Origin: a plasmid
Sequence record: NZ_CP054002.1
DNA: 64,000 nt
Reading direction: 5' to 3' (one strand)
Every line of letters starts with the position of its first letter. Within the stretch, counting starts at the first letter, position 1. Positions 14,178 through 43,493 of the stretch are shown in pieces. Both the position numbers and the translations under genes were made by a program. Below the pieces are notes generated by a model, which worked only from the letters and a program-made list of their open reading frames with translations, was not told the origin of the DNA and made no database searches.

Positions 14178-14180
14178 AAT

Positions 14181-17594: not shown

Positions 17595-17597
17595 ACG

Positions 17598-18908: not shown

Positions 18909-18911
18909 GAC

Positions 18912-19100
18912 TTATTGATAAAGGTGTTCATTTTCATATTTTAGCAACCATTCAGCAGCGTTTTCCGCATTCGGGCTAACTCCTTCAGCTTGCATATCCG
19001 CAACGTAGAGAGCCGCTAAATCTTCTTGAGCTAATAAAAATTCAAGATCGTCAATCTCTCCAGTCTGATTCTTTTCTACCAATTTGTTGTAATCTTCCAT
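18912..19100 (-). CDS. small hypothetical protein (62 aa)
   Basis: Intact ORF tightly coupled to ardC; identical copy at 62994..63182. Confidence 0.4.
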   Translation of the reverse strand: MEDYNKLVEKNQTGEIDDLEFLLAQEDLAALYVADMQAEGVSPNAENAAEWLLKYENEHLYQ

Positions 19101-19150
19101 GATATTTATTTTTAAGTGATAACATTTTTACTTTCGGAAAAATCTATTAA

Positions 19151-20962: not shown

Positions 20963-20967
20963 GACAA

Positions 20968-22050
20968 TTATTTTAATAATTCAGCGGACAATATATATTC
21001 ATTCAATATAGATAATTTCATATGCCTTCCCCCACCTCTTTCAAACATTTCGATCTCAAAAACCTTATCATCCGGGATAGTGAACTTATTGAATGCTAGG
21101 ACAAAGCGATTTTGGCTTTTGCCCAATATCTTTTTATCAAAGTCTTTTTGTTCTACCGGATCATACGGAACTTCCTGCTGGATAGAGTTCTTAACCTTCT
21201 TCTGATCACGAAGGAAGCATTTAATAAAATCAACGTCATAATCTATATTTGAGAAGTTTTTTATATCAAATACAAAAAACATGAAATCATCTTTTACATA
21301 TAGGTTTGCAAGGGACATCTCAAACTTATTTTTTATAACTCCCAAGCTGAAGATATTACGCTTTTTATAGTGCAGTTTATTGATAAGATTATCCATCTCT
21401 ATGCTATTTACATCAATGTGTGCAATATATTTGCGACCATCGTCAAAGTTGTAAGAGTAAGTAAGAGCATGGTCTTTAAACAAGGTAATTTCATAGGTAT
21501 TCAGATCTTTATCGATAACAAACAGATTAGAAGGTTCAAAGGCATCAAAAGTTGTACCAACTTTAACCATATTATTATAATACTCAACCCCGAAAACTTC
21601 TTCATTTCCTTGTTTCAGATATAACACATCTGCTGGAAAAAACATTTCTGTAGTATTGTTATTATTGACTATTACGTTATAACAACGTGATCTATCCACA
21701 TCACCGGCATATACGATATTTCCGCAGTGATCCGTCATTCCCGGTAACAGATAGGATATTTTATAAGAATAGACATTCCCGTTTGTACAAACTATGATAA
21801 GGTTTGTCGTTCCTGAAAAATCTTCTTCCTGTGCCGTTATGCGGACAACATTAGGAACATTATCCACCCGTTCCACTTTTACATAATCTTCACGACCATA
21901 CGAAATGTCACTTACTTGTGCAGGAAGTACTATATGTTTCGTTTTATCAAACGAAACATAAATTGTTTGGGAGTCCAGTTCTTTTTTTTCCTGTGCAGAA
22001 ATGGAGAATGGAACACAAAACATGATTAATATAAAAAGCAATGTTTTCAT
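20968..22050 (-). CDS. traN: TraN-like conjugative transposon T4SS protein (signal peptide; about 360 aa from MKTLLF)
   Basis: Position after traM, signal peptide MKTLLFILIMFCVPFSISAQ; C-terminal frame differs from copy 2 (G5 vs G4 run). Confidence 0.55.
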   Translation of the reverse strand: MKTLLFILIMFCVPFSISAQEKKELDSQTIYVSFDKTKHIVLPAQVSDISYGREDYVKVERVDNVPNVVRITAQEEDFSGTTNLIIVCTNGNVYSYKISYLLPGMTDHCGNIVYAGDVDRSRCYNVIVNNNNTTEMFFPADVLYLKQGNEEVFGVEYYNNMVKVGTTFDAFEPSNLFVIDKDLNTYEITLFKDHALTYSYNFDDGRKYIAHIDVNSIEMDNLINKLHYKKRNIFSLGVIKNKFEMSLANLYVKDDFMFFVFDIKNFSNIDYDVDFIKCFLRDQKKVKNSIQQEVPYDPVEQKDFDKKILGKSQNRFVLAFNKFTIPDDKVFEIEMFERGGGRHMKLSILNEYILSAELLK

Positions 22051-22226
22051 TTTACAAAACCAATAAAAATATTTATAATCCAAAGCAGAACGAAACAAGA
22101 TATTAAACTATACATCAGTACTTTCATTTCTGCTATCTTTTTCCCTTTAGAGCGTTCTATAAAGAACCTATAAGCCAAAAATACAGTAGCTACAGCTACC
22201 ATAAAATTAAGTATATCAATTATCAT
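22047..22226 (-). CDS. small membrane protein (59 aa) between traM and traN
   Basis: ATGA/TAATG overlaps with neighbours; intact in both copies (59875..60054). Confidence 0.3.
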   Translation of the reverse strand: MIIDILNFMVAVATVFLAYRFFIERSKGKKIAEMKVLMYSLISCFVLLWIINIFIGFVK

Positions 22227-23535
22227 TATAATGCTTCAATTAGTTGGGTTAAAGGATTCTTTTTCTTTGGTTCATTCTGCTGCATCTGCATTTCTCTATA
22301 CAGACGTTCTATTTCAGCTTCTTCTTCCTCTCTCTTTTTTCTGTCTTCATTAGTTTCTTCCTTGATATACATATTATAGTTAGCTTTTAAATGAACCTTT
22401 ACTTGAGAAAGGCTTTGATTTAAAATTTGTCTAGTAACCTGTGTAGTGGCTGTGATCGCACTAGTTACCTCACTTGTTACTGTGCCAATAGAAGAAATCG
22501 GAAGCTGCACGCTTGAAGCAAGCCCTGTTCCATTTTTCGAGCAGCTTCAGCTTTCATGTTATTGGGTAAATTCAATCCCTCAATCGCATCAGAATCATAA
22601 ATAGTAAAAGCGACAGGACTTATATATTTCCCATATCGTATGTTCTCTACCGTAATTTTCAAACGAGTAGAGCCGACACTAGCATTTCCGTAGAAGATCG
22701 TATTTGCAGGGATCTCAACGCCACCAACCCATAAAGGCTCTAACAAGCGCATCCGGACAGCACTTCCACTAACAATGGTCTGATCTCCATAAATAGCAGC
22801 TTTGATAAGATTGACTTTTTGGTCAATAGTAAACTGTGACCGGCGACGCCGTTTTCCATTTTCCACTATAAAAGTCGGCTTTGAAGCTTTCTCAACTTTA
22901 GGAACAGAATCATTTACTTTCGGAAAAATATTCTCTTGAGATTTCTCTATATCTTTTCCTGATGCTTGATCCTGATATTTCTTTCTCATTTCATCCCGGA
23001 ATCTTGCATTTTCTTCTAGCTCTTTGCGTATTCTTTCCTCTTTCTTTGCTTCCTTGACTATCTGATTAAAGGTTTCTTGATCCTCAATATCATTTAGTTG
23101 TTGGCGCATTTTATCAGAAAATGCACTGTTAGATTTTTTTCCTCGCTCCTTGTATTCGCTAGTAACTTCGTCCAATGGATCTTTCTTCATTTTTTCAATA
23201 CGAGCTTTCATTTTCTCGTTGTATTCGTCTTCGGATGTCTGCATTTCAAAATAGAAATCGCTTCCTTTTACTTGTGATTTTTCCAATTCACGTTTCTTAC
23301 GAGCAGCTTCTTCTTGTTCACGTTTATAAGCATCTACCTTATTAGCGATCTTCTTTTCTCCTTCTGTGTCCGGTTCAAGAAAAGCCTGATTCACTTCTTC
23401 TGTATTGGATGCTGATTCAGCCGGTTTTTCTTTTTTACCAAAGAAAACTATTACAAACAGTACGCCCAAAAGCAGAGGTACTAACATTAACAATTTGTTT
23501 TTGTCCTTCAACGCTTCTCTTAAAAAGTTTCCCAT
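22226..23535 (-). CDS. traM: TraM-like T4SS protein; apparent frameshift near 22500 in this copy (intact 436-aa version at 58565..59875)
   Basis: N-terminal TM, long coiled-coil K/E-rich middle; ORFs 22477..23535 + 22226..22510 join to copy-2 protein. Confidence 0.55.
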
Positions 23536-23542
23536 AGCTCCA

Positions 23543-24172
23543 TTATTTTAATTTTTCTTCATCTGTTATTTCTCGTGGTTCCGAATATCGAACGTCCCAG
23601 CTTTCGATTTTAACACCGTGAGAGTTTTCACGTGATCGAGATACATCATATAGAGTAAAGTTCACAGAAATATCACGTGCTACGCTCCCCCTAGCACGAT
23701 AGCCGGTTTGCGTAAACAGTATATCCCCGGATATCGGAACTGTTTGCATATTGATATGTATATCCTTGATTATAACGCCATAGCGTATATTTTTCTGAAT
23801 CAAAGAATTAAGCATATTAATATCGTTATATTCGTTGTAAAGCTCTTTTCCTCGATTACCAATCAAATTAAGAGCTAATGTTACGTTATTCTCATAAGTG
23901 CTTTCATCGAAGGAGTACCACAGCGAAACAAATGTTTTGATATGATTTTCATATTCATACTTTCGCATCGCTGCGGATTCAATGGCTGCAACATCGTAAA
24001 CCTGTCCTGAAGTATCAAGTACTAAAGCCTTCGTATAAGCCGCATCTATCTTGTTTGACAAATAGAAGAAACAGACAGTAAATGCAATACCCATAATCAG
24101 ACAACAAGAAGATGCAACAATCACAGTTGTTTTAAAAGCCTGATCCACTGTTTTAAATTTTGTAAGATTCAT
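23543..24172 (-). CDS. traK: TraK-like T4SS protein (209 aa)
   Basis: Size, N-terminal TM, gene order J-K-M. Confidence 0.6.
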   Translation of the reverse strand: MNLTKFKTVDQAFKTTVIVASSCCLIMGIAFTVCFFYLSNKIDAAYTKALVLDTSGQVYDVAAIESAAMRKYEYENHIKTFVSLWYSFDESTYENNVTLALNLIGNRGKELYNEYNDINMLNSLIQKNIRYGVIIKDIHINMQTVPISGDILFTQTGYRARGSVARDISVNFTLYDVSRSRENSHGVKIESWDVRYSEPREITDEEKLK

Positions 24173-24178
24173 ATTTAT

Positions 24179-25231
24179 TTATTCTTCGTTATCTATAACA
24201 CTTTTACCTAATGAAGCAGCAGCCCCTACATTTGTAGCCCCCCCTGCTATCGCTGATCCTGCAATCGCCATCGTTGCAGCAGCAGTTACAATAGATACCG
24301 TTTTAGAAATGATTCTACCGGCATCACCATGACCGACTATCTTACTTGCCAACCAGAAACAACAACAATAAGAACCGATCAAAGCAAGATCCATGCCTAA
24401 ATATTGTAGCTGTTTTGTCGCTTCATCTACTGCGTTGAATGCGTCAGAATCATAAATTGACTTAAATGTAAACCACATTATCTGATTTAAAATATTAATC
24501 ACAGTAAATACCATACCAACGGAACACAGTGTACCAAACCAATTAGACAGCTGCTTTTGGAATACCGGTAGAATGGAAAAAGCAAAAACGAAGGGACCTA
24601 ATATGACAAGGATCTTTACAATGACAACGCCCAAACCCAATATGATAATTTGTACAATCCCGACCAGCAGTGCGGCTAGAGCATGTAAGAGCATTGCTGC
24701 GAAATTGGCAGGATTTAATATTTGGGAGATTTGTTTCAATGTAGATGCACTTTCATCTATTTTATTACCTTGATCTATATTTTGTAGTTCTTTATTCATA
24801 GCACCTTCCGGATCTTCCCCCGCAGCGACTTCCGCTTCAAGTGCCGTTTTTTCATTATCGGCTATCATGGTGTGCTGTTCTTCCGCTGATCTGTCTAGAA
24901 AAGCCGCAAACTCCTGTGCCCGGACTGAACTTAAAGATGTTGCTTCATTTATTACTTCAAGGGTTCCAACGACAGTTTTTGCGATAGGTGTATATAGCGA
25001 AAGACAGAATATTAAAGCAAAACAGCGAGCTATTTCCATCAAATCCGGAAACTTATTTTCATCCGATGTTAAAAGCTGACTAACACCATGATATAGGTAA
25101 TTATAAGCTATATTACAGATGAAACAAATAACTGCTACACCAAGCGCAATTACCGTCATTTGCGCAGTTAATTCTGTTGTAAGGGAATCATTAATCTGCA
25201 ATCCCCATAAAAAAGTATCTTGTCCGTTCAT
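24179..25231 (-). CDS. traJ: TraJ-like polytopic T4SS membrane protein (VirB6-like, 350 aa)
   Basis: Multiple TM helices, position after traI. Confidence 0.6.
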   Translation of the reverse strand: MNGQDTFLWGLQINDSLTTELTAQMTVIALGVAVICFICNIAYNYLYHGVSQLLTSDENKFPDLMEIARCFALIFCLSLYTPIAKTVVGTLEVINEATSLSSVRAQEFAAFLDRSAEEQHTMIADNEKTALEAEVAAGEDPEGAMNKELQNIDQGNKIDESASTLKQISQILNPANFAAMLLHALAALLVGIVQIIILGLGVVIVKILVILGPFVFAFSILPVFQKQLSNWFGTLCSVGMVFTVINILNQIMWFTFKSIYDSDAFNAVDEATKQLQYLGMDLALIGSYCCCFWLASKIVGHGDAGRIISKTVSIVTAAATMAIAGSAIAGGATNVGAAASLGKSVIDNEE

Positions 25232-25239
25232 AAGGCTAA

Positions 25240-25824
25240 TTAATTAGTATATCGACTAAAAGCAGATAAATTTCCGCTATAATATGTTTTCCCTACATGT
25301 TTTCGACTTGCATCTTTTATGATCTCACTTCTTACTATTTCATTAAAAGATTTCATTTCAGCAGAAGCCGTTTCTAAGGCTTCTCTTACCTGTCCGACAA
25401 AGGACATTCTTCCCTCACTATTCATGCTGAAATAGTCGGAAACAGTAGCAACCTTAAATAATAGATCTGTGCTCAAATTAAGGTTTACCGTAACTTGTTG
25501 GAAGTTTAAAAACTTTAAACAATGATAGCTACCGCCTATATTCATATAAAAACGGTAATCACTACTTAGACAAGCTACATCATCCAACAGTTCAGCAAGT
25601 TCTACTAAAGATTGTAGTTGGCGTAGTTGGTCTATCTTTTGTAAATTTTCTCGTATATGTGCAGCATCAATCATTTCATTAAGCTGCTTAACCCATTGCG
25701 CTGCATTCGCTCCCCATTCGCCAAGGTTCATTCCATGTGAGCCGGATCATTAACAACCCATTGCGCACTAGCCTTTTGAACAGAAAAAGAGCTACTTAAC
25801 AGCAACACAGAAAAAATAAGAGTA
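25240..25824 (-). CDS. traI: TraI-like secreted T4SS protein; N-terminus frameshifted in this copy (intact 199 aa at 56262..56861)
   Basis: Copy 2 has signal peptide MKIKILLFFSVLLLSSS...; copy-1 ORF 25240..25731 lacks it. Confidence 0.45.
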
Positions 25825-25852
25825 TCTTTATTTTCATAATATTATAAATTTA

Positions 25853-26071
25853 TTATCGCAGAATAAACACTATCGCAAATATCAAAGCCACAAACCAAGC
25901 GACTAGATATGTTCTTGCATTATCTTTCTTTGTAGCTAAAGCCCAGACTACAAAAATCAGAGAAACGCCTAACATTGCAGCGGTGATATACCCTGCCACA
26001 CTAAAAGACGTATTGTTAAATTCTCCCGACCATCCTTTTATCTGGTTCAATCCTTCTACAGCATCATTCAT
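25853..26071 (-). CDS. small membrane protein (72 aa) downstream of traG
   Basis: Hydrophobic C-terminal half; identical copy 56028..56246. Confidence 0.4.
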   Translation of the reverse strand: MNDAVEGLNQIKGWSGEFNNTSFSVAGYITAAMLGVSLIFVVWALATKKDNARTYLVAWFVALIFAIVFILR

Positions 26072-26089
26072 ATTTTTTTCTCCTTTCTT

Positions 26090-28669
26090 CTAAATACCGG
26101 TTAATAGCAGCATAAGTAGATCCTGTTTCCTCAAAAAGCTGTTTGAGCCTAACCACAGTCGATTGTCTTGAATCAAAGCGACAGCGGCAAATTCAGATAC
26201 TTCATTGCGAAAAACATAGGTTTCGTTTCCCAATTTAATGAAGAACTCTCTCCACTTGATCTCATCATCCCTATTTTGCAGACTATCTATCATTACTAGT
26301 TCTTCTTCTGAAATAGAAAGAATATCTCGCAGATTGGGCAACTCCTTTCTATAACTTGAATGATCCAGTATTACTTTAGTATCACAGTTTATAAGTATTG
26401 AATCCTTGATCGCCGGTGGACAGTTCTTCAGGAACAGTACATTTTGGGCAGCTATCGTTATAGCCCCGTCTTTTTTACGGAATGTACGATACAAATAGGC
26501 GATAAAATCACCAAACTTATCATCACTTAAAAAGTCTAGGGCTTCATCGATAATCAATTCCTTATTAACTCCTTCACGCTTCTTGATCTTATCGATAACC
26601 ATTTGAAGCGTGATAATCGCTACCAAAGGAAAATACTCCTTCTTTGCTGCGTCTTCCATATCAAACGCAATTAAATCATCGTTAACTATATCAATATTTT
26701 CAGTTGCGTTCAACAAAAGGATAGTTCTCCATCCGTGTAAGGTTCTAGTAGTAAAAGCACTTCCTCTATCTCAAATCTACGTTTTTCAAAGTCAGTCATT
26801 TTGTAAATAAATACATCTCGCAAGAAATTCCGGTATTCTATCAGATTAGGAAAAATCCTTTCATTTGTTCCATCAACAGAAGAATTATTTACATACTCAT
26901 AAAATGCGATCACTGATTTTCTAAGAATAGCTTTCTCGGTGGGATCGATAGGCTTATTTTGTTTCCAGATATAGGATAAAAGAGCACAGATCGTTTTAAT
27001 AAGATCCTCGGCTGCTTCTGCATCTGAAGTATCAATATAAATATATCTACCATTCCGATCACGTTCACACAAGAACGGGTTAAAAGCAAACTGTTTCTGA
27101 TTTGTAGAATCAAAATATTTACCTCGGTGCAGGCTAATCATAGACCTGTAAGATCCACCGATGTCAATAATTGTAATATCATTACCCAAAGAATAAGACT
27201 GATAAATATAGTTGTTTAGCCAAAAGACTTTCCGGAGCCGGACGGACCGATTACTATTTTATTTCTATTGTTTAAAGCCTTGTTATTCCATAAATTTATC
27301 AATGCAGGATTTCCGAATCGGTCATTATACAAATGCCCTTGCAGATCAGAAATATAAATACTATCTTTTTGCAAATAACAAATCGCCTGTTTGGTCGTAT
27401 TGATAAATCCCCTATAATTGCTCCGAGCATTCCCCGGTATATTAGAAAAAATAAATTGCACAACTCCGCATTCTCGACATAACAAGAACTTTGGTTCATA
27501 AAACTAAATCCCTGCTGTGCCAATGAAATTTTCCGAATTAGAGAAGAACGATCCGGATCATTGATAATCACATTAAAAGCTGTATAAGCTGTTTGATAAT
27601 CAAAATCCGTAATTTCTTTACAGAAAAGTTCTTGCTGTTTTGCTTGTCTTTAGCCGGAGGATAAAAGTTAGTCAAATAGTTTAGCCCGTTTTTTTCAGCA
27701 TTAATAGCCGTTAGCGTAGTATCTGTATCTGTTATTTCTATCACAACATTTACAATGTGATCGAAAGGCAAACCTAGTCCAACCGGGTACAACATAGAAC
27801 ATTTAGACTGTATATTCTCCGGAAGCTCAATCGTACTTCCATACGCTTTTGATTTACCCGTATTGGGTACATTCAGCTCATAAAGATTTTCCCCTTCCAC
27901 GGTAAGAGAAAGCATCGCTAAATATTCTTGTCCAACCTTCAGATCACCGCTAGGAGTTACCATAATTGGGCTAACTGTTTCTTGAGTAGCGTCTTTTGTT
28001 GGTTTAGCATACGAGAGATTAAGATAATCAAAGACAGCATTATTTAAGTCTTTACTATCCATCTTCTTTATCTCAAATTGAGTTATAGAAGATAACCCAT
28101 TTCAAATTCAAGATTTTCGGTTCAATCTCTGATAACCTTTCTTCATAGTTCTTGTAGGGCTGTTTAAAAGGATAATTGAGTTTTTTAAGCAGCGATGTAT
28201 TAGAAGCCTTTTTTCGCACTCCCTTTTCAAATCTGTATTGGCAAAAGTGATATACAAATTTGTATAGCAGTTTATTATTTGCTTGTTATTAAAGTGTTTA
28301 ATACTTTCCGCTTTCAATGGATTAACAGAAAAGTCATTGTTCTTATACTGGCTTACATAGTAAAGCACTGCTGATGCACCACCGTTGCAGGAGGTAACAT
28401 CTTAAAAAGCCCCTCTAACCTCTCATGTATATATTTTGCATCTTCCTGCGAAAGAGTAAATACTTCCGGAAGAAACAATCTGTATCCAATGGTTAAATCT
28501 CCGCTACCGTTTACTATAACGCTATCCGTTATGGTCTGGATCGGTAGTACAGCCGAAAGATCTATTGATTTATCAGATATAGGAACTTCAGAAGGACGCA
28601 TAAAAGTATGGCGAGTAATGTAATGACACCACACAGTAATAATGCCGATATAATAATAAATCCTATCAT
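26090..28669 (-). pseudogene. traG: TraG-like VirB4-family T4SS ATPase split by at least 6 frame breaks in this copy (intact 871 aa at 53420..56035); probably sequencing artefact
   Basis: ORFs 28353..28634, 28108..28368, 27568..28062, 27299..27571, 27216..27485, 26710..27189, 26090..26716 tile the copy-2 protein. Confidence 0.7.
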
Positions 28670-28766
28670 TTTATTTTGTAATTAGTTACCACATAGTAGA
28701 TATAAACTCTCTGCAAGAAAAAGCGACAGCCTTAATCTGTATCACGTATTCCGCAGGATTTCAAGA

Positions 28767-29075
28767 TCATTTCTGCTTCATTATAAAATTGAATACCTTA
28801 TGTTTATCTATTATCTGTTTAGGGGTTGCAGATCTAACCGATAAGCCAGTTAGATAATCCGGATTGCCAGCTTTATGTTCCCGTTTTAGGTTCTTGAATA
28901 AGATACCTGAAGCAAAGAATATAGCTCCCATGACACTAACTATGATTACCGGATGCACATGCTTAAATATGCAAACAATTATAATCAAAGCATTTGCCAA
29001 CATAAATAGACCAAATTGTCCCGACGTTAAGCCAAAGAACTTAATTGGTCTATTTATCTTTCTTATAGTCCTCAT
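28767..29075 (-). CDS. traF: TraF-like small membrane protein (102 aa)
   Basis: Two TM segments, directly upstream of traG. Confidence 0.45.
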   Translation of the reverse strand: MRTIRKINRPIKFFGLTSGQFGLFMLANALIIIVCIFKHVHPVIIVSVMGAIFFASGILFKNLKREHKAGNPDYLTGLSVRSATPKQIIDKHKVFNFIMKQK

Positions 29076-29078
29076 TAA

Positions 29079-29360
29079 TCAGATAATAAGGAAAGCTACC
29101 ATAATAACCGCAACCGCAATGATCCAGCCGAGCAGATACTCCTTGGCGTGGGGATTATTCGTTGCAAGGGAATAGATCACAAATACTAAAGCTATGCCAA
29201 GCACGGCAGCTAATACATACTTTGCGATATTAAGAATCGTATCAGAACCTTCTTGCGCTTTCGATTCAACATCGGACAAACTGCTAATTTTTAATGCGCT
29301 TTGGGCTTCTACAACTTGAGGAACAACAACAAAAGTCAGCAGGAAAAGCCCTAAAATCAT
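29079..29360 (-). CDS. traE: TraE-like small membrane protein (93 aa; signal peptide + TM)
   Basis: MILGLFLLTFVVVPQVVEAQSAL; position before traF. Confidence 0.45.
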   Translation of the reverse strand: MILGLFLLTFVVVPQVVEAQSALKISSLSDVESKAQEGSDTILNIAKYVLAAVLGIALVFVIYSLATNNPHAKEYLLGWIIAVAVIMVAFLII

Positions 29361-29470
29361 AATAATACGCTTGTGTACACTAACAAAATCTACACTCTTT
29401 TCAAAACTTGTACCATAATCTTAAAATTTTAATTGTTATTTTATACATGTTATTTATATATCAATCTTGC

Positions 29471-29863
29471 TTAAAGCGGAAAAATCAACACTTTCATATT
29501 GACAAAAACATCATCTGATTTTTCCGAAAGTACTTGATGCTGGAATGGTGGTATCTTACCAGCATAATAGTACGCCCGGTTTGAAATATACATATCCGCT
29601 ATCTCTCTACTTAATTCTTCATCATCTGAAAGATCCTTTTGAAAAACTATTGTTATGCGTGGAGATAAAACTAGATCAGAATCAGATTTTTCTTCTTCAA
29701 CTGATAGTGAAGCTGTACACTCCGTTTTCTTTTTACTTCCGGAAAAATAGACCAATCCTAAAATTAGAATTGAAACAATAACTATCGTAACTATCGCCAG
29801 ATCAAATAATGAATAATTAGTGGCTAGATATTCAGTCATTTGTATATTTATATAAGCGACCAT
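29471..29863 (-). CDS. membrane protein (130 aa; C-terminus differs from copy 2 by an indel)
   Basis: N-terminal TM; copy 2 at 52224..52634. Confidence 0.35.
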   Translation of the reverse strand: MVAYINIQMTEYLATNYSLFDLAIVTIVIVSILILGLVYFSGSKKKTECTASLSVEEEKSDSDLVLSPRITIVFQKDLSDDEELSREIADMYISNRAYYYAGKIPPFQHQVLSEKSDDVFVNMKVLIFPL

Positions 29864-30053
29864 ATTAGTATAAATATTACTAATGCAACGATATACGTAA
29901 TTATAGCTTCTTTCATTTTCTCATGATTAGTTATTATTTTTTTATAACCGCAAGACCTGCACAGACAAATCCGACACCGGCTAGCATTTCGCCACATTGT
30001 TTGAATAAGTCAATCAATGCGCTTACATCAGCTGATAATAATATCATAATCAA
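29848..30053 (-). CDS. small membrane protein (68 aa), frameshifted in this copy (A7 vs A8 run); intact at 52033..52239
   Basis: Comparison of copies. Confidence 0.3.
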
Positions 30054-30613
30054 TAAATAAGGACTTTAACACCAAGATTCCAGACTGTATTCCATTTGCT
30101 TGCATAGCTAAACGGACTCCAATACTGCTTAACACGTCCAAGTATCGCAACTCGTGGAGATACAAAGTATTCTAATTCAGGCTCGATCTTTAAACCAAGT
30201 AAGAAATCATACTTATTATCCTGCCTCTTGTACGCTTCTACACCTGTAAAAAGACCTAGACCTAGGCTAAAATAAAGTGAAGAAAGATTTGTCGCAACTG
30301 TTTTGAAATAAGCAGCATCAATATAGTAATCTTTTGCTGTAGAGCTAAAAGAAACTATCGTTGGAACTTCCGCAGTATTGCTTTCATAACTGTAGTTATA
30401 AGACTTTTCAAAATAGTTCAAACCTATTTTCCAGTAAGTTGTTCGACTCCTATACTTTGATACTGAAAGGTTTAAGTTAGTATTATTCCTACCAAAAATA
30501 TTCAATCCATAGTTTACTTCTAGGGCTGAAATACCTACATAATGCCGTTGTGCATAAACACTATGTGTACATGCACATAACACTAGTAATAAAGTTAATT
30601 TTAATAATCTCAT
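30050..30613 (-). CDS. outer-membrane beta-barrel-like protein (187 aa), first gene of tra block
   Basis: Signal peptide, alternating hydrophobic pattern, C-terminal aromatic (LIY). Confidence 0.5.
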   Translation of the reverse strand: MRLLKLTLLLVLCACTHSVYAQRHYVGISALEVNYGLNIFGRNNTNLNLSVSKYRSRTTYWKIGLNYFEKSYNYSYESNTAEVPTIVSFSSTAKDYYIDAAYFKTVATNLSSLYFSLGLGLFTGVEAYKRQDNKYDFLLGLKIEPELEYFVSPRVAILGRVKQYWSPFSYASKWNTVWNLGVKVLIY

Positions 30614-30614
30614 A

Positions 30615-30637
30615 TTCAGTTTAAAAAAAGGTTCGTT
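30615..30637. repeat. inversion crossover site R (reverse complement of site L)
   Basis: TTCAGTTTAAAAAAAGGTTCGTT, 1 bp from tra block start codon. Confidence 0.75.
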
Positions 30638-30711
30638 ATATTGAATGCAAAATTCAAATAAATATTTAAAACAGCAAAAATTTTGTGGTTAAATATTGTA
30701 ATTTTTATGTT

Positions 30712-30910
30712 TTCTCCCATAATTCAGGCTGAACACATTTCCAACCAGCGGCAGCTAAATAGTCCCGGATTCGTTCTTCAGGAACTTTGCCCCCTTTTGA
30801 AAGGTCGCTTTATCATATTTCGCCTGAATAGGTGAACGTAGGGAATTTACATACCACTTTCTTTGTTTAATAAGCTCGCGGAAAGAATCTTCCAAAGTCA
30901 GTTTATCCAT
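30712..30910 (-). CDS. small hypothetical protein (~66 aa if one frameshift in a G5 run is corrected)
   Basis: MDKLTLEDSFRELIKQRKWY...; alternative frame continues ...PEERIRDYLAAAGWKCVQPELWEKT. Confidence 0.3.
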
Positions 30911-30934
30911 TTCTTTAATATTAAAAAATGTATA

Positions 30935-31060
30935 TATAGTTTAATGTATCAAAAAATCGAATGTTATATAACTTATATATGTTATATATATTGTATATGT
31001 TATATATCTTTGTTGGGCGATTAATTCATGCAAAGATATAGATTATTAATTTAAAACATA
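30935..31060. promoter_or_regulatory. AT-rich divergent intergenic region with TATATGTTATATA-type direct repeats
   Basis: Three or more ATATGTTATATA repeats between divergent genes. Confidence 0.4.
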
Positions 31061-31627: not shown

Positions 31628-32832
31628 ATGATAATTTATTATGGAAAAGAATTAAGCCGGGTTCCACGCCTATTAAGTGAAAGTTACAATTCTGGGCTAA
31701 TTGAGCGCTTATATGATTCTGGCGGTAGTGTAATGCTAGATATTATAATTTACCTTTGTGGGAATCATATTAGAGATCTATTTGGTGAATCATGGTTCTC
31801 AATAGAGGATTTTTGTAATAAAATGGGTTATAATCGGACAAATCTTCAAAGAAAACTATCTAAGGAACAGCTGAAGGATCTTTTGGAAAACGCTCACCTC
31901 ATTATATCTGTAAGGATATAAACGGGGAGGAAATAAGCCACCCCATAGAAACCGTTTTTGAAGCCGCCCTTTATAAACTTGGCTTAGAAAATATGTCTTA
32001 TCCTGTTTCTACAAGCGAAGGCACTTCATATATATTTATTCAGATCCTTACCAAATTTGAAATCCGGACAAATTTTAAAACCAAGAAAGGAACGAAAAGA
32101 TTATATAGTGCTACTCTGAATAATCTGATAAAGGATTCTGTTTATACTCTCTATAATCTAATTGAAAGTCAGGATTATAGAGAGTTACCTTCCAAATATC
32201 GATATTTCTATTTGGAACTATCGAAAATGATATATCTTATTAAGTATAAAATCAAAACAGGAGATGCACCTAGTTACAGATTAACCGTTGATCAGTTGGC
32301 TAAGTTGTTCAACCTCAATTTTGAAGAGAATAAGGAAAGGAAAAGAAATGTAACAAAAGTTTTGAAGGGGATAAATGAACACTTGAGATTTACCAACTTT
32401 CAATTTAAGTACGTTAAAGGTGCTAATGATAAATGGGCATATACGGTAGATTTTGAATTTTCTCAAGAAACGCTTGATTATTTTGATGAACGCTATACCG
32501 CTATGTTTACTCAAAGATTCTATAGTGATCTGTTATGGAGATACGCTGGTTTAGCTTTTCCTAATTGTGCGGTAGGCAGAGATCGGGTTAACAAAGTTGA
32601 AGATATAAAATCTGATCGAAACTTGTATGAAGATTATTTGGCATGGGCTAATTCTCCACAAAACAAAGCACTGAAAGAGGAAGTATATAGGGAAAATTTC
32701 TTTCGGGTATTTGGAAAAACCCCTGAAGAGTTTGGATTAACTAGTAATGCCCCGACTGTGACACGTGAGCCAAAGGAATTTATAGTTAAAAATCCACCTA
32801 CTGTGACACCTGAACCGGAAAAGATTATCTAG
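31628..32832 (+). CDS. putative replication initiator (Rep-like), with apparent frameshift near 31900 joining ORFs 31628..31921 and 31993..32832
   Basis: Frame of second ORF is open back to 31921; iteron array directly downstream. Confidence 0.4.
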
Positions 32833-33140
32833 CTGTGTAAAACACTACACTTTTCAATTCTGTTAACATTTCCAGCTGTGTAAAACACTACACTTTTAGG
32901 TTTCCAGCTGTGTAGAATGCTACACTTTTGGGTTTCCAGCTGTGTAAAATACTACACTTTTAGGTTTCCAGCTGTGTAGAATGCTACACTTTTGAAAATT
33001 TAGCTGTGTAAACACTACACTTTTGAATTTAGCTGTGTAAAATACTACACCATATTAAAGATATCGCAAAAAAATAAAGTGTTGATTTTTAGATAATTAA
33101 TGAAAAGTGATTTTTTCCAGCTGTGTAAAAGGCTACACCA
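32830..33140. repeat. iteron array: about 8 direct repeats of CAGCTGTGTAAAA(C/T)ACTACACTTTT at 24-30 bp spacing
   Basis: Read directly; candidate vegetative origin. Confidence 0.65.
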
Positions 33141-34003: not shown

Positions 34004-34590
34004 ATGAAGATAGGATATGCACGTGTATCGACTCCGGATCAGAATCCAGCTTTGCAATTGGAAGCATTAGAAAAGGCTGGTTGTGAGAAAATTTATCAAG
34101 AAAAAAAATCAGCGTTTAAAGAACGTCCTGAATTAATCCGGGCATTAGAAGATCTTAGAACTGGGGATATCTTATATGTCTGGTCGTTGGATCGTTTAGG
34201 CAGATCCATGAAGGAAATCCGGACGAATGTAGATCTAATAATGAATAAGGGAGCGCATCTTGTCGATGTAACGCATAATATCGATACGTCCACTCCTTCC
34301 GGGAAACTTTTGATCCCGATATTTTCAATGTTGGCAGAAATCGATCAGGTTTTACGTACAGAAAGAACGGTTGCAGGTTGGGAAGTCGCAAAACGTGAGG
34401 GAAGAACAGGAGGAAGAAAGCCCGGCTTAAATGATTTAGCGAAAAAGAAAGCCGAGCAGGCAAAGAAAATGTATCTGTCAAAAGATCCCTTCTATTCAGC
34501 AAAGAGATCGCTTCAATTCTCAATATCTCCACGAGAACTTTGTATAAATATTTGCGTTCTGTTGGGGTTGAACCAAAACAAAACCAGTAA
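34004..34590 (+). CDS. second small serine recombinase (resolvase/invertase family); C-terminal HTH reached only after a frame correction near 34480
   Basis: MKIGYARVSTPDQ; alternative frame gives KEIASILNISTRTLYKYLRSVGVEPKQNQ*. Confidence 0.65.
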
Positions 34591-34628
34591 CCGGTTATCT
34601 CTTAATGGAAAGTAAGGTAGGAAATCCC

Positions 34629-34907: not shown

Positions 34908-35440
34908 TTAATATGATAAGGAAAGGTAAAACAACCTTTCCTTATGGCTATTTTTTCCTAAAGTACCGTTTATGAATTTGCGTTTATAGCTTGCTATTTC
35001 TTTCTTATTTTCTTCCAAAAATGCTTCAAGCAGATTTCCTAGCATTTGCATCATTGGAACTTTTGACATTGTAGATAGTATTTTAAGTTCTTGATGGAAC
35101 TCTCTAGGTATCTTTATCGTTTCCGTGTCTATTATCTCTCTTTTAGCGAAAAGCAAAGAAAGACCTTTAGGAAAAGATGATTCGGGAAATTCTGAAGGTT
35201 CTTCTGTCATATTCTCATTTTCCTGAATGATTTCTTCTTCTTGTACTGGAGCAACAACTTTAGCTGGTTCTGTGGTGCTGGCTGCTGGTTGTACTTCCGG
35301 AATTTTCTCTTCTGAAGTCTGTTGTGATGAAACAGATTTTATACTTTGAACTTTCTTAGCTTCTTCTTTACCAGCCTGTACCAATGCGAACATTGATGTT
35401 TTGGGTTTTCCTGTATTTTCTTTTCTTCAGCCATAATTTC
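34908..35440 (-). CDS. TraB-like / DUF3408-like protein (tentative), possible N-terminal frameshift
   Basis: Position downstream of ParA-like traA; low-complexity acidic N-terminus. Confidence 0.3.
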
Positions 35441-36134
35441 ATTTTTTAACGTAATTGATTAATAATTGTATCATTTCTTCTCCGAAATCATCACAGGTGT
35501 GATTATAGTTGTTTATTATCGTAGAAAGGTTTCTTTGGTAATTAACTTTGCTTTCCTTGATATGATTGTTCAGTAGCTCGAAAGGTAAATTGTCTTTGTT
35601 TGCTATAAGCTCTTTATATTCAAGCAAATTAGGTGTTACCTTGTTAGGCAATCCTTTTACTATTGTTTTGTAACCTAGACTTTCTCGTTTAGATAAGATA
35701 TTTTCCTTGTAGTAATTGTAGAACTTTACAGTGTGCAATACTTCGATTTTTGAAGGAGCAAAAGGTATAATGACCACATCCATCATCATTAGGGTTTCTA
35801 CTACTCCTGCCTGTTTCAAGTTTCCCGGAAAGTCAACCACTATTATATCGAAACTTTCTTTGAGAAATTCTATGCTGTTAATGAAGTCTGATGAAGATAT
35901 ACTCATTACTTCATACTCGTCTTTTATATCCTCTTCCTGTTGTGCTTCATCGAAAGCTCTTAACTCCCCCATTGTATTTTGCGCATCGTCTATATCGACA
36001 ACGCCAATGGTTAAACCTGTCTGCTCGTGGCTCTCATGTACATATCCTGCGAACAAGGCTGTTAATGTTGATTTACCTGTTCCACCTTTTGGGTTCTCGA
36101 ATGCTACGAATATACCCGGTAATATTTTTCCCAT
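35439..36134 (-). CDS. ParA-family ATPase (TraA-like partition/transfer protein, 231 aa)
   Basis: Walker A KGGTGKST. Confidence 0.8.
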   Translation of the reverse strand: MGKILPGIFVAFENPKGGTGKSTLTALFAGYVHESHEQTGLTIGVVDIDDAQNTMGELRAFDEAQQEEDIKDEYEVMSISSSDFINSIEFLKESFDIIVVDFPGNLKQAGVVETLMMMDVVIIPFAPSKIEVLHTVKFYNYYKENILSKRESLGYKTIVKGLPNKVTPNLLEYKELIANKDNLPFELLNNHIKESKVNYQRNLSTIINNYNHTCDDFGEEMIQLLINYVKK

Positions 36135-36943: not shown

Positions 36944-38356
36944 TAGCGGAGATACAAGACCCGTTTGTAGGAGAAGCATTAAACCGTAAAATCGATTATC
37001 AGTTAAAGAAGATTGAAAGCGGTGTAGCTAGGGAATTATATAATTCTTCTGGTGATTCTCTTATTAATATGTATCGTAATATGTCCCTTGTTGCTGGTCT
37101 GAATGATCGTGTGAAATCACCATATATAGAATTTATTCTTAGCAGCCCGATAGGGGAGGATCTTCCGGACGAAAAGTTTTCTGAAGTAGCGAAAGAATAT
37201 TTGGAAAGAATGGATACGGTGATTCTTGCTACACCATCATAAAGAACGATGATAAGGACCACCGACATGTACATATACTTGCCACTACGATAGACTTAAA
37301 CGGCTTGTGGATCTCTGATAGTTACAGCAAGGACGTTCTGGAAAGATCATGCGAGAGCTAGAGCTTAAACATGGGCTTGAAGTTATGGAGAAAGGAAAGT
37401 CTTCCCGGAACAAGACGTTGGGAGAATCCCAGTACCGGCAATATTTCTTTGACACAGCTTTGCACAAGGCTTTGCGCAGCCATAATGCAAAAGAACGGGT
37501 GAAGGATCTTCTAGGGCAGTCGGAAACCTTTAAAACGATTAATCCTGATATGACTAAGGCTTATACTAATGCGGAATGGAAAATCATATTGGGGGAAGAT
37601 ACATACGAAAATATGTTAGATATGTTATCAAAAGGAAAGTTCTTTAATCCATTACTCAAGGACGAGTTACTTTCCGTCATGGATCGTTTGCGTCAGGAAT
37701 GCGGCAACATGAAAGAGTTCCGGGATCGATTGGAAAAAGAAGGGTATTATATGCGTCTGGTATCGGACAAGGGGAAATCTCATTATGTATATGGCATTCC
37801 TGATAGGGGCTTTTATCTGAAAGATACAGCCCTTCCGGAATCGTACCGGTTTGGGAAACTTTTGTTCGCCGGAAAACAAATGACCGCAGACGAGCAAAAG
37901 CATTATCTGTATAACCAGATCTTTGCAGTTCTTAATGGTTCATCCAGCTATGAAGATTTTAAAGACCGGCTAGCGGAGCATAATATAAATCTGATCGAGC
38001 ACGTCAACGGTAAAGGGATATACGGCATATCCTTTGCCCTTACAAATGTCGATACTCCGGAAATCTTTAAAAGCTCTGATGTATCAAGGAGATTAACCTA
38101 TCAGAACATACAAGACTTCTTCCAAAAAGAGCAGAATCCGGAACAGGGAAAAGAACAGGAGAGAGCAACACCCATCGATCCGGTTATCGTGTGTTATGCG
38201 AGTAATCCGCACGAATGGGAGAAGGATCTTATCTATATGTACCCGGTTGCCATGTCAATGGCTTTAGATAACGGATCAGGGAAGCACCGGAAAGGTGATG
38301 AAGATCTTCCGGACAACAAGAAAAAGAAAAAGCGAAATAAAGGATTATCATATTAA
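36940..38356 (+). CDS. MOB relaxase (about 470 aa) with two apparent frameshifts (~37215 and ~37345)
   Basis: N-terminal relaxase-like segment, YTIIKNDDKDHRHVHILATTIDLNG motif III in a third frame, then ORF 37349..38356. Confidence 0.65.
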
Positions 38357-38402
38357 TAACAAAATTGAATAGAAAATGCGCAAAAAAAAGAAGCAAATTA
38401 GT

Positions 38403-38615
38403 ATGGAAGCAAATCGCTTCAAAAACGTAAGCGAATTGATAAAATCGTTTGAGGAGTATTCTGGGTTCAGTATTGATCCGGAAGAGATAGATACTCGTGA
38501 TAAGCTGTTGGATAAAATTTCGGAAATACAGGACTATTTATCTAATGAAGTATCAGATATATGTTCTCAGTATTATTATGAAGCAGGACAATTAATGCCT
38601 GAAGATGAAGATTAA
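38403..38615 (+). CDS. small acidic hypothetical protein (copy of 595..807)
   Basis: Identical translation. Confidence 0.5.
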   Translation: MEANRFKNVSELIKSFEEYSGFSIDPEEIDTRDKLLDKISEIQDYLSNEVSDICSQYYYEAGQLMPEDED

Positions 38616-38632
38616 CGTATAACGAATCGGAA

Positions 38633-38893
38633 ATGAACGATATACTATTCAAAAAAATAAAAAGAGCAAACAGTAAATATGCTGAATACTTATCAGCTTG
38701 CGATAAAGTAGCTAAAGCAGCCCAAAAGCATATAAACTGGAACGATAGCGTAGGTTGTGCCTATATGCCGGGTGACGGTCTTTGCATAGAGATTGAAGCC
38801 CATGTTTGCCCAGCTACAAGATTTTTTGAGCTACCTGATATTATCGGTAATGATATGATTGATGAATACACATATCGAACCAATTGCATTTAA
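38633..38893 (+). CDS. hypothetical protein (copy of 825..1085)
   Basis: Identical translation. Confidence 0.45.
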   Translation: MNDILFKKIKRANSKYAEYLSACDKVAKAAQKHINWNDSVGCAYMPGDGLCIEIEAHVCPATRFFELPDIIGNDMIDEYTYRTNCI

Positions 38894-38910
38894 TTTAAAA
38901 CAAGTTAATC

Positions 38911-39882
38911 ATGAACTACAGCGAAGTTTTAAATCCATACCAGCCGTTAGAAACCGGCGATTTCATGTACCGGTATTATATTAATGACCGGGAGTATATA
39001 ATTTATTCACCGGAACGAAACAAGATATCCTGTTTGGAGTTGTTCGATTTCAAAGATCTTAGCGCTTTTCAATTATCTATATCCATCCAAGCGAAAGTAC
39101 AGGTGCAATCGGAAAGCGAGGAATTGAAGGAGTTTAGTTTTGATCACGTATGTAGCAAAGAAGATCTGATAGCTTATCTCTTTGATATTACTGAAGGAAA
39201 AACGGAGATCCGGAAGGTGAGAAAGGTTTCAAATAACGAGGGCTATTTCCTTTTTGAACTGAAGAGTGCGCATAAGATCCGGAACTTTTACCAGTTCAAC
39301 CCGGAAAGTAAAGAGTATCAGCTCGTGTTTGACAATGATATTTGCTGTGCAGCGATATATGAAGATGTAACTTCTGATGTCGTAAACGTGTGCTGGAATC
39401 CTGCTATCTTTAGTATATTAGAAGGACAGACAGAGCAGCAGAATACTTCTTATCTTCTGCCTTCTTCTAATCCTATCCTTTGTGCGCATGTCTGCAAGAA
39501 AGCGCAGGAGAGAAACGCTAGGATCAATCTGTACGTAGGCAAAAACGGCATAGAAGCTCTTTTGTTCTTTTCTTACTATATAGCTTCTAAAGGAATTGAG
39601 AAAAGCATTTCTATTTTTTCCGACAGTAAGCAGGTGACTGTAGAAATGGATCGTTGGAATCCTGTTACGGTGGTTAAACTTATGTCTAAGATGCAGAAAA
39701 CGATCAATGATAAGTTAAGGAAACAGTTTGGGGAAGAAGATGAAGTGACCATTTACCGGCTGGAATCCGTAGCGGGGAAATCTTTTCTTGCTTTTCAAAA
39801 CCATCCTCTAGCAATAGATGTGTTCTTTCGGAATATCATCCCGTTATATGGTTTGGAAAATATTGAGTATATAGAAATGTAG
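38911..39882 (+). CDS. hypothetical protein 323 aa (copy of 1103..2074)
   Basis: Identical translation. Confidence 0.55.
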   Translation: MNYSEVLNPYQPLETGDFMYRYYINDREYIIYSPERNKISCLELFDFKDLSAFQLSISIQAKVQVQSESEELKEFSFDHVCSKEDLIAYLFDITEGKTEIRKVRKVSNNEGYFLFELKSAHKIRNFYQFNPESKEYQLVFDNDICCAAIYEDVTSDVVNVCWNPAIFSILEGQTEQQNTSYLLPSSNPILCAHVCKKAQERNARINLYVGKNGIEALLFFSYYIASKGIEKSISIFSDSKQVTVEMDRWNPVTVVKLMSKMQKTINDKLRKQFGEEDEVTIYRLESVAGKSFLAFQNHPLAIDVFFRNIIPLYGLENIEYIEM

Positions 39883-40538
39883 CTTGTTGTTTATCTGATA
39901 AACAAGAAAAAATTATTCTAAATAGGAAACATTTTTATAGGGAAATTGTTATTTTTGTGCAGTCGTAAACCGACCGTGTTTTTACATATTGAAGAAAAAA
40001 AGCGTTTAGCTGATTTCTGTGCAAGCGAAAAGTCCAAAAATTGCATTATACACAGAGAAACAGATAAATGCTCCCCGTGATATGCGGGGGTATCTCCTGT
40101 TTGTGTGTATAGGGCTTGGACTCCCTCGCTTGCGGATAGGCGAATGCCCTTCCGCTTTTTTTATGTTTATTGGCTTGGTGTAGGGCACAAGCGAAAACCT
40201 TATGGCAATGGAAAAGACACAGCGAAAACAGTCCCTAAACTGCTTGTCAAACACTCCTAAGCTGTTTGACCTAAACGAACTACTAAGCTCGCTCAAGATC
40301 ACACCCGGACAAATGGAGAACATGAAAGGGTTGATATACATCGAAGGGCTGACGGAAAAGCAAGTACGCCAAAGATTAAGCCATGCAAAGATCATCAGAA
40401 CAAATAAATTCGGGGTTAATTCCTGCCTGTATTATATCCTCTTTGAGGATGTAAAGGGGAGATATTTGTGCCTGTTTAACGGTGACAGGGAATGTTTCAG
40501 AGCGTTGTTTTTCAGTATTCACCTGTAAGAAGTTACTA

Positions 40539-41338
40539 ATGACAAAAAAGAAATTGCCCGTTCGTTTTACGGGTCAGCACTTTACTATTGATAAAGTGCT
40601 AATAAAAGATGCAATAAGACAAGCAAATATAAGTAATCAGGATACGGTTTTAGATATTGGGGCAGGCAAGGGGTTTCTTACTGTTCATTTATTAAAAATC
40701 GCCAACAATGTTGTTGCTATTGAAAACGACACAGCTTTGGTTGAACATTTACGAAAATTATTTTCTGATGCCCGAAATGTTCAAGTTGTCGGTTGTGATT
40801 TTAGGAATTTTGCAGTTCCGAAATTTCCTTTCAAAGTGGTGTCAAATATTCCTTATGGCATTACTTCCGATATTTTCAAAATCCTGATGTTGAGAGTCTT
40901 GGAAATTTTCTGGGAGGTTCCATTGTCCTTCAATTAGAACCTACACAAAAGTTATTTTCGAGGAAGCTTTACAATCCATATACCGTTTTCTATCATACTT
41001 TTTTTGATTTGAAACTTGTCTATGAGGTAGGTCCTGAAAGTTTCTTGCCACCGCCAACTGTCAAATCAGCCCTGTTAAACATTAAAAGAAAACACTTATT
41101 TTTTGATTTTAAGTTTAAAGCCAAATACTTAGCATTTATTTCCTGTCTGTTAGAGAAACCTGATTTATCTGTAAAAACAGCTTTAAAGTCGATTTTCAGG
41201 AAAAGTCAGGTCAGGTCAATTTCGGAAAAATTCGGTTTAAACCTTAATGCTCAAATTGTTTGTTTGTCTCCAAGTCAATGGTTAAACTGTTTTTTGGAAA
41301 TGCTGGAAGTTGTCCCTGAAAAATTTCATCCTTCGTAG
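40539..41338 (+). pseudogene. ermF: ermF copy with single-base deletion (TTT to TT at ~40890) causing frameshift; probably sequencing artefact
   Basis: ORFs 40482..40937 + 41009..41338 tile ErmF. Confidence 0.8.
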
Positions 41339-41549
41339 TTCAAAGTCGGGTGGTTGTCAAGATGATTTTTTGGTTTGGTGTCGTCTTTTTTTAAGCTGCC
41401 GCATAACGGCTGGCAAATTGGCGATGGAGCCGACTTTTAGCACAAATGTTGAATAGAATTACTAATCTTCAACATTGCACAAAAGTTCAATAGAAGTACT
41501 TCACCGGCTCTATTGCCAATTTGTTTGTTATGTGCCGTTTTATTCCATT

Positions 41550-42715
<1,166 letters not shown>

Positions 42716-43493
42716 TCAAAAATGGCCCATAACAATGGCTCGGCGAATTGGCGAAGTAGCGAAGCTGTATCGAAGATACAAAAGCGGAGCTATTTAGCCA
42801 AGTCGCTTGTTGTAAGCAGTCCGCGAAGCGGCGGCTTACGGCAAGCGACGTAAGTCGCCGAGCCATTGTTAGCAAGGAGCGCAGCGGATTGCTAACAACG
42901 GTTTGCAGCTATACGCAGGCAGGGATTTTTACCACTAAGCTACCTACGATGAACTGAACTTTAAATTTACCACTTTCCTGTCTTACGAAGCACGAACCCC
43001 CTGCTTGCGTATAGGTGATGTTATGCGGTCGGCTTTCATTTTCTCTTCTTTCTCGTTAATTTGTCAAGCAAAGTTACTAAATTTGCAGTCAAGCAATTTC
43101 AATTTTGAATTATGTATTTCAGCAGACCTTGGACTTCTATCTAAGTGATAGGCAGTCCTGAATAAATTCCAATCAATCTTTTAGGGCAAGACAATCAGTC
43201 TATGCTTTGTGTGTGCTGTCATTTTTTTTGATGGCATTGCTTTGTCGTAGTTGCTCTGTCGGGTAATACTGTCTATTCACTTCTCTGTGATTTGAATTCA
43301 AGGTATTACTAAATTAACCCCCTATAAGATAGAATTGTAAAGTTCTTTTCATCCGCAAAATGGAATGAATAGAACGTAATATTCATATTGTTAAAATCTA
43401 TTAACGGGGGGGGTAAATTCTAATTTGTATTTCTACATGCTTTGAATAATAAATATATACATATTTTTGAACCATTAAAATATAAACTTTATC

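Follow-up and report, generated by a model that had tools for sequence, protein, structure and literature searches.

Does the inversion of a large plasmid segment decide which upstream region is joined to the conjugation genes of a Bacteroides plasmid, and could it thereby switch transfer on and off? The question is raised by a 64,000-nucleotide stretch of the plasmid record NZ_CP054002.1 (the window; position 1 is its first letter). Self-BLAST reveals that the window consists of about 1.7 head-to-tail copies of a 37,807-bp circular conjugative plasmid of the Bacteroides fragilis type. Positions 1-13671 are present again in direct orientation at 37808-51471 (99.92% identity), and positions 18089-30656 are present again, inverted, at 64000-51430 (99.73% identity); the two alignments share 42 bp (51430-51471). 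The sole structural difference between both plasmid copies is the inversion of a 16,977-bp arc that carries the transfer (tra) genes, with the remaining plasmid forming a 20.8-kb backbone arc. A preliminary description of this DNA had proposed that inversion changes the region upstream of the tra operon. This change is real and site-specific: an invertase gene related to Gin lies next to it, and it recurs in independent assemblies and in several lineages. The following elements define the two arcs in the window.

13655-30631, minus strand in copy 1: the invertible tra arc, which measures 16,977 bp from one site centre to the other; the inverted copy runs from 51455 to the end of the window.
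30050-30613, minus strand: the first tra gene, encoding a TraO-like outer-membrane protein of 187 amino acids; copy 2 lies at 51473-52036 on the plus strand.
12977-13576, minus strand: gene for a small serine recombinase of the DNA-invertase (Gin/Hin) type, 199 amino acids, adjoining site L; a second copy lies at 50777-51376.
13641-13666, plus strand: site L of copy 1, TTTATTAAAACG-AA-CCTTTTTTTAAA, with the central AA at 13653-13654 and the core at 13649-13671.
30620-30645, minus strand: site R of copy 1, TTCAATATAACG-AA-CCTTTTTTTAAA as read on the minus strand, with its centre at 30632-30633 and the core at 30615-30637.
51441-51466, plus strand: the recombinant site of copy 2, formed by the left half of site L and the TraO end of the arc, with its centre at 51453-51454.

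All three junctions in the window contain the perfect 23-bp core AACGAACCTTTTTTTAAACTGAA, on the plus strand at 13649-13671 and 51449-51471 and on the minus strand at 30615-30637. At up to three mismatches the core matches three times in the window and not once in 100 shuffles. It harbours a hix/gix-like site with 12-bp half-sites arranged around a non-palindromic AA. Each plasmid unit has two such sites of about 26 bp, inverted relative to each other, with imperfect dyad symmetry and identical AA cores; the dyad is clearer in the sites of related plasmids (AAAACG-AA-CGTTTT and AAAACG-GT-CGTTTT). Site L joins the recombinase flank (A) to the distal, 3' end of the tra arc, and site R joins the flank of a small gene (D) to the start of the TraO-like gene. 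One site is located in a 5' leader and the other 14 nt past the stop codon of a gene for a bPH_2 protein (measured to the core), and inversion leaves the coding sequence unaltered.

The ATG of the TraO-like gene lies 1 nt past the end of the 23-bp core and 18 nt downstream of the central AA. It had been described as 1-2 bp from the crossover, which is correct for the end of the repeat but not for the crossover point. The latter can be located from four aberrant junctions in public assemblies (L007, L008, L017 and L136), in which one half-site is joined to a foreign or internal partner. The joined sequences read AAAACGAA/GAATAAAT in L007, ACGAAC/GTTACC in L008, GATATGAA/CCTTTTTTT in L017 and GTAAGGAA/CCTTTTTTT in L136. 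As every break falls at the AA or within 1-2 bp of it, strand exchange takes place at or within 1-2 bp of the central AA. The partner in L007, a single metagenome contig, is a site inside the arc:

24173-24195, minus strand: internal pseudo-site GATAACG-AA-GAATAAATAAAT, directly before the ATG of a tra gene for a 209-amino-acid protein.

Recombination between the pseudo-site and site L in this contig has put the invertase flank before the traK/M/N-like genes, perhaps through an aberrant event or because the pseudo-site serves as a secondary switch position. Half-sites are joined to unrelated DNA in L008, L017, L029 and L136 (the TraN region, a GC-rich foreign traM, a C-run sequence and a Fic-gene context), which suggests occasional action of the invertase at pseudo-sites or between different elements.

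The 199-amino-acid recombinase contains a Resolvase domain (PF00239, E 7e-39) and an HTH_7 domain (PF02796, E 5.8e-6), with the motif GYARVSTPDQ. Its best match among solved structures is Gin of phage Mu (4m6f, 137 bits, E 6e-39), ahead of the resolvases gamma-delta and Tn3 (81-88 bits, with gamma-delta at 88) and Sin (57 bits). Membership in the family of the Mpi master invertase was rejected, with 86.1 bits against an equivalog cut-off of 272 for NCBIfam NF009949. A shufflon-type switch was rejected as well: the enzyme is a serine recombinase rather than the tyrosine recombinase Rci, there are two sites per unit, and no coding segments are exchanged. The exact protein is indexed in approximately 23,500 blocks of public assemblies. 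As far as sequence comparison can tell, these results show that a Gin-like invertase acts on both hix-like sites, turning the tra arc of 17 kb around against the backbone arc of 20.8 kb.

All genes of the arc are on the minus strand in copy 1. The TraO-like gene is followed by small type IV secretion system (T4SS) components, a TraG-like ATPase (DUF3875) and TraJ/K/M/N-like proteins, and then by a DUF3945 protein, an ArdC-like zincin, a single-stranded DNA-binding protein (SSB), the type IV coupling protein, a PLCC lipoprotein and the bPH_2 protein. Many tra open reading frames (ORFs) are frameshifted in the window; those split at 25.8-29.9 kb are intact in CP103219.1. This record (B. fragilis BFG-502) and CP103200.1 (BFG-642) are near-identical complete plasmids, in which the tra arc is 99.3-99.8% identical and the backbone is mosaic. 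The inverted pair in the window differs by 29 gap openings versus 5 mismatches, and the direct repeat has 11 gaps. Such indel-dominated differences are typical of long-read homopolymer noise. A single contig with both orientations could be the expected output of an assembler when reads back both junction pairs, or a real heterodimer; in either case both isomers are present in the sample.

We surveyed public junctions by searching with the invertase, with TraO and with the bPH_2 gene of the distal end, and by scanning metagenomes for the core. The copy-2 state is recognised by junctions of flank A with the tra start and of flank D with the distal arc end, the copy-1 state by junctions of A with the distal end and of D with the tra start. 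All four canonical junction types were found in independent public assemblies. The copy-2 state, in which the recombinase faces TraO, accounts for about 82 junction observations, not all of them independent, and is the state of all deposited complete plasmids. The copy-1 state was seen in five junction observations from three contigs (L009, L015/L138 in GCA_024792835.1, and L020/L139); flank A meets the distal end in L009, L015 and L139, and flank D meets the tra start in L020. Among consensus assemblies, copy 1 is thus the minority state, at about 5%. In one scaffold (L012), an N-gap falls exactly in the site.

These junctions bear on another explanation, a long-read mis-assembly that produced the inverted second copy. 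The window is concatemeric with homopolymer indel noise, and a foldback does occur in what is, by its similar accession prefix, apparently the same assembly series. This foldback (L133; GCA_024788765.1, JANUJI010000003.1, positions 2992-3008), in the record of a related genome, is a palindromic, head-to-head doubling of the end of the tra arc from the coupling protein to bPH_2. It has no site at its junction and was dismissed as a long-read assembly artefact. The breakpoints in the window, by contrast, fall exactly at a 23-bp inverted repeat beside an invertase gene, and each junction type is present in independent short-read metagenome contigs and in other genomes. An artefact is scarcely credible as the origin of the inversion.

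What does the inversion change? Only 18 nt, all of them half-site, separate the crossover from the TraO ATG, which leaves the tra operon no space for a promoter of its own. This excludes a promoter inside the arc upstream of the outer-membrane protein gene, and tra transcription must start across the site, from whichever flank is attached. Both flanks contain promoter-like elements; the promoter calls are matches to the TTTG/TAnnTTTG motif only.

30705-30910, minus strand: small gene, 68 amino acids, reading towards site R, with no function assigned by similarity.
30648-30678, minus strand: candidate promoter P_D, TTTG-N19-GAATTTTG, ending 10 nt before AACGAAC and pointing through site R.
30935-31060, either strand: AT-rich region that has repeats with a 9-bp period and a facing pair of perfect -7 boxes.
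13588-13595, minus strand: the conserved -7 box of the invertase gene itself, TACTTTTG (pattern TAnnTTTG).
51410-51438, plus strand: weak promoter-like element, TTTG-N17-GATTTTTG, pointing at TraO in copy 2 and not conserved.

In copy 1, the arc is co-directional with, and downstream of, the small gene and the AT-rich region, as the preliminary description had it; the span of the small gene, given there as 30712-30910, is really 30705-30910. The candidate promoter P_D is located in the 56-nt gap between this gene and site R. Across six diverged D flanks, the TTTG at -33, the 19-nt spacer, the GAnTTTTG at -7 and the 10-nt distance to AACGAAC are all invariant. The Bacteroides pattern TTTG-N18-20-NANNTTTG is rare, with six occurrences in the 37.8-kb unit (both strands); one of them is P_D, and most are just 5' of gene starts, including those of mobC and the AbiE operon. 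Scans for sigma-70 promoters were discarded, since their hits are no commoner than in shuffled sequence and the sigma-70 model does not apply to Bacteroides.

The small gene itself is frameshifted in the window by a 1-nt deletion in the G-run 30789-30793 and is intact in CP103219.1. Its homologues are always found beside the D-side site and before the P_D motif, and a B. ovatus plasmid has a tandem duplicate. The predicted structure of the 68-amino-acid protein comprises three helices and a β-hairpin, with a confident predicted local distance difference test (pLDDT) score of 86; a search of the PDB returned no significant fold match (best E 2.8), and there is no match in Pfam or NCBIfam. Upstream of the gene, two TATCTTTG boxes face each other 18 nt apart in the AT-rich region, one on the plus strand (31005-31012, within 31003-31012) and one on the minus strand (31031-31038, within 31031-31040). 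The small gene and the opposite 31062 operon would therefore have promoters that overlap head-on, and positions 30935-31060 are likely to be the promoter and operator region for both.

In copy 2, the junction comparison confirms that the TraO-like ATG is joined to the recombinase-proximal flank 51377-51471. This flank also contains a box, GATTTTTG (51431-51438), and the two flanks in the window share the arrangement TTTG-N17/19-GAnTTTTG with an identical 10-nt offset from AACGAAC. It is thus conceivable that the tra operon is expressed in both orientations from different promoters that are regulated differently. The promoter used in copy 2 would lie in the invertase flank, where bound invertase might occlude it, and copy 1 would use P_D together with the operator-rich promoter of the small gene. 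That almost every assembly and every deposited complete plasmid is in the copy-2 state is what one would expect if that state were functional. We nevertheless regard a two-promoter switch of this kind, the chief competitor of the reading proposed below, as unlikely. The -7 box of flank A is non-canonically spaced. Its critical last base is G, T or C among gut metagenome contigs (L027-L048), with one ATTTTTTT variant, and in related lineages the tra-directed box is missing through an 8-bp indel, whereas P_D is invariant. The -7 box of the invertase gene is conserved in these lineages. The variable last base of GATTTTTG may represent natural variation in the leakiness of copy 2.

At least five more plasmid lineages of the Bacteroidales have the layout, and in one of them both states are seen. 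In the diverged plasmids, the invertase gene is followed by a spacer of about 90 bp, the site and, 18-35 nt downstream of it, the first tra gene. In B. ovatus, the 117-kb plasmid NZ_CP041396.1 encodes an invertase of 57% identity and has an exact inverted site pair at 31094 and 42674; a PLSDB search for further plasmids of this type returned the query record alone. An invertase of 67% identity is found in a metagenome-assembled Bacteroides genome from the Hadza (L050), with the same order of recombinase, site and first tra gene. In the P0055 and P0039 lineages, the layout is present in all 24 of the 24 contigs each. The pBACSA01 type is more distant (invertase 47% identical, site pair at 27712 and 40273). 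Both states occur here: the invertase gene is divergent from the tra start in L077, L079, L082 and pBACSA01, while in L080 (Phocaeicola plebeius DSM 17135) it is the coupling-protein end that lies opposite the invertase, and the flank that they share departs exactly past AAAAAGG-GT-CG. In pBACSA01 (L004, 27700-27712), the distal end of the arc also starts with an ATG directly after the site, towards a TetR-FabH gene row; the flank promoter may therefore serve two inward-facing operons in turn in this lineage. B. thetaiotaomicron p5482, considered as a relative with published maps of transcription start sites, lacks the invertible layout.

Among distant relatives of the invertase in GTDB representative genomes, tra homologues are present at only 8 of 80 loci, five of them gut loci with 67% or 45% invertase identity. 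The association of the invertase with tra genes therefore looks lineage-specific, not general. In one related lineage (L160/L161), the small gene is directly followed by the TraO homologue without a site between them, which suggests that the small gene followed by tra is the native operon order. The spacer of L160/L161 (1647-1743) contains a 13-bp perfect inverted repeat, TATTTGCTGTTAT-N8-ATAACAGCAAATA, in place of the site, which may be an operator or an RNA hairpin.

The inversion might also have functions in which regulation of tra is not the main purpose: exchange of modules, resolution of cointegrates between co-resident plasmids, or amplification as in the 2-micron/FLP system. In the latter (Futcher) variant, inversion during replication would turn theta into double rolling-circle replication. 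As in 2-micron, the circle is split into two arcs, and the probable replication origin is placed asymmetrically:

32828-33054: six 27-nt iterons at 32-bp spacing, directly after the ORFs 31628-31921 and 31993-32832; probably the replication origin, at distances of 2.2 kb (site R) and 18.4 kb (site L).

The mosaic backbone, the junctions with foreign partners and a contig with the same tra arc on another backbone (L019) also speak for functions of this group. Yet neither exchange nor amplification needs a site 18-35 nt before the first tra start codon and beside the invertase, as seen in every lineage, and the conserved promoter and small gene at the other site point to transcription. Moreover, we know of no amplification of the 2-micron kind by serine invertases, which counts against that variant. 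We consider this group of functions, the Futcher variant among them, improbable as the principal role.

We propose that the arc operates as a Hin-like ON/OFF phase switch that acts on the whole plasmid arc, with copy 1 as the ON state and copy 2 as an OFF or low, basal state. We place the probability of this reading at roughly 60%. The preliminary description had allowed for either an ON/OFF or a two-promoter switch of transfer; the invariant P_D, the lack of a conserved motif in flank A and the small gene-TraO fusion in L160 favour the former, and the functional part of the proposal is one that we infer. In copy 1, transcription of the small gene and from P_D would read through the site into TraO and the T4SS genes, turning tra ON. 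No intrinsic terminator was found in either flank, so that tra transcription in copy 1 can run on into the invertase gene. Transcription past site L into this gene would increase switching back and keep the ON state short-lived. In copy 2, TraO abuts the invertase flank without a conserved tra-directed promoter; tra would thus be OFF or basal, and P_D would fire antisense into the 3' end of the arc. Which way the switch works, how large it is, what it does to expression and whether it feeds back are likewise inferred. A wider interpretation is programmed phase-variable conjugation, in which a dedicated invertase would physically part the whole T4SS/tra operon from the promoter and the leader gene in the majority of cells, and a minority ON state would limit itself through read-through into the invertase. 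For this we see a little less than an even chance.

Several points weigh against the proposed switch. Classical Gin/Hin invertases require Fis and a recombinational enhancer; neither was identified here, an enhancer being unrecognisable from sequence alone, and no Fis is known from Bacteroides. The state that predominates in assemblies is the proposed OFF state, and it could equally be the normal working arrangement. With the GATTTTTG box at the same offset from the site as P_D, copy 2 might also be expressed. The promoters are motif matches, and tra expression in either state is read from them. Finally, the contig might be the assembler's resolution of a mixed population and not a single molecule, which leaves the case for inversion unaffected.

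The gene content of the arc and of the adjoining backbone would also fit other outputs. Inversion might determine which end and strand of the tra arc, which holds the SSB and ArdC-like anti-restriction genes, is first to enter the recipient, or it might couple the invertase and AbiE to tra read-through. The genes for SSB, the ArdC-like protein and the coupling protein are indeed at the distal end of the arc, and in copy 1 the arc is co-directional with the genes for the invertase, AbiEi/AbiEii and toprim, with no terminator between. Such outputs leave unexplained why a site abuts the first tra ATG and why P_D is conserved. They appear very improbable as the main effect of inversion.

The backbone arc contains a second recombinase gene, which is probably the multimer resolvase of the plasmid and separate from the invertase:

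34004-34615, plus strand: second small serine recombinase, 203 amino acids, with a Resolvase domain only, near a ParA gene (35439-36134).

The ORFs 31628-31921 and 31993-32832, which precede the iterons, look like one frameshifted Rep gene; a 397-amino-acid homologue in L134 has a faint Rep3_N match. Directly downstream of the invertase gene, the minus strand carries a gene row with AbiEii (10884-12101), a 249-amino-acid partner, a toprim-like gene and a further pair of HTH_3/DUF6922 and AbiEii genes. This row, a defence and toxin-antitoxin cluster, also holds three paralogous segments that are each about 300 nt long and 65-68% identical, at 8112, 9611 and 10899; the region 8112-12840 occurs again at 45913-50640. 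A 48-nt GC-rich repeat, GCCTCCGGCGGGGTTTTCGCCGGGGGGCTTCTTGCATTTGCATAT, brackets a segment of about 1.3 kb at 6276-6323 and 7620-7667 (and at 44077 and 45420) and resembles either a terminator hairpin or the termini of an inserted cassette. Positions from about 2700 to 5500 match resistance genes of the ermF and tet(X2) type with an IS5 element, as on plasmids of Sphingobacterium, Riemerella and Bacteroides; the invertible plasmid therefore carries resistance cargo.

Conjugative plasmids spread antibiotic resistance through the gut Bacteroidales, where the control of transfer is known mainly for elements of the CTnDOT type. The plasmid described here is among the commonest in the human gut, and the system is abundant in human gut data. 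If our interpretation is correct, a DNA-inversion switch on the transfer operon would constitute a new layer of control over horizontal gene transfer. Under the wider interpretation of phase-variable conjugation, transfer competence would be a stochastic, heritable and reversible trait of a subpopulation, set by DNA topology and not by repressors. An inversion switch might account for transfer frequencies that are low and variable. It might also mislead the assembly and typing of plasmids, with concatemers, broken contigs and 'non-mobilizable' calls as the outcome. As the invertase and the 26-bp sites are defined, the switch can be tested directly. We found no published description of the inversion of a tra operon in the full-text literature, including the pMMCAT preprint, surveys of programmed inversion and invertons and a Bacteroides review; most subscription journals lie outside this search, and absence is not proof. 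The phrase 'phase-variable conjugation' was not found in any of the 15 top-ranked literature matches listed.

Inversion has been adopted for different purposes in several known systems. The yeast 2-micron plasmid likewise has two inverted sites, two arcs and two isomers of a circular plasmid, but FLP is a tyrosine recombinase acting on FRT sites in 599-bp repeats, its role is in copy number, and there is no link to a start codon or promoter. The shufflon of the IncI plasmid R64 shares site-specific inversion on a conjugative plasmid with an effect on conjugation. Unlike the present system, it employs the tyrosine recombinase Rci and multiple sfx sites, and it alters the C-terminus of the PilV adhesin and thereby recipient specificity, not tra expression. 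The invertible polysaccharide promoters of B. fragilis, controlled by Mpi, belong to the same host group and combine a serine invertase with phase variation through the uncoupling of promoters; our comparison of sites with this system is based on the Mpi consensus. This consensus has an ACG-NN-CG core. According to Patrick et al. 2003, as cited in PMC5903667, the inverted repeats of the Mpi system resemble hix. Mpi inverts promoter fragments of about 200 bp, in contrast to a 17-kb gene block with a local, dedicated invertase here.

The closest relatives in sequence are Gin, Cin, Pin and Min of phages Mu and P1, e14 and plasmid p15B. Their genes are also located just outside the inverted segment, and secondary sites are used occasionally, but those systems swap the 3' coding parts of tail-fibre genes, and no coding sequence is altered here. 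The H segment of Salmonella, inverted by Hin, is similar in several respects. Its enzyme belongs to the same subfamily of small serine invertases and has its gene beside one of two inverted sites, and an outward promoter at the other end of the arc is connected to the target operon or disconnected from it. In both systems the sites are about 26 bp long, with an AAAAC-rich half-site and a central AA. Differences lie in the size (1 kb there, arcs of 17 and 20.8 kb of a circular plasmid here), the target (flagellin there, a conjugation/T4SS operon here), the Bacteroides host and the promoter type. The mechanism is thus Gin/Hin-family inversion with a logic closest to that of the Salmonella H segment, and what sets it apart is its scale, with plasmid arcs of 17 and 20.8 kb, and its target, a complete conjugation operon.

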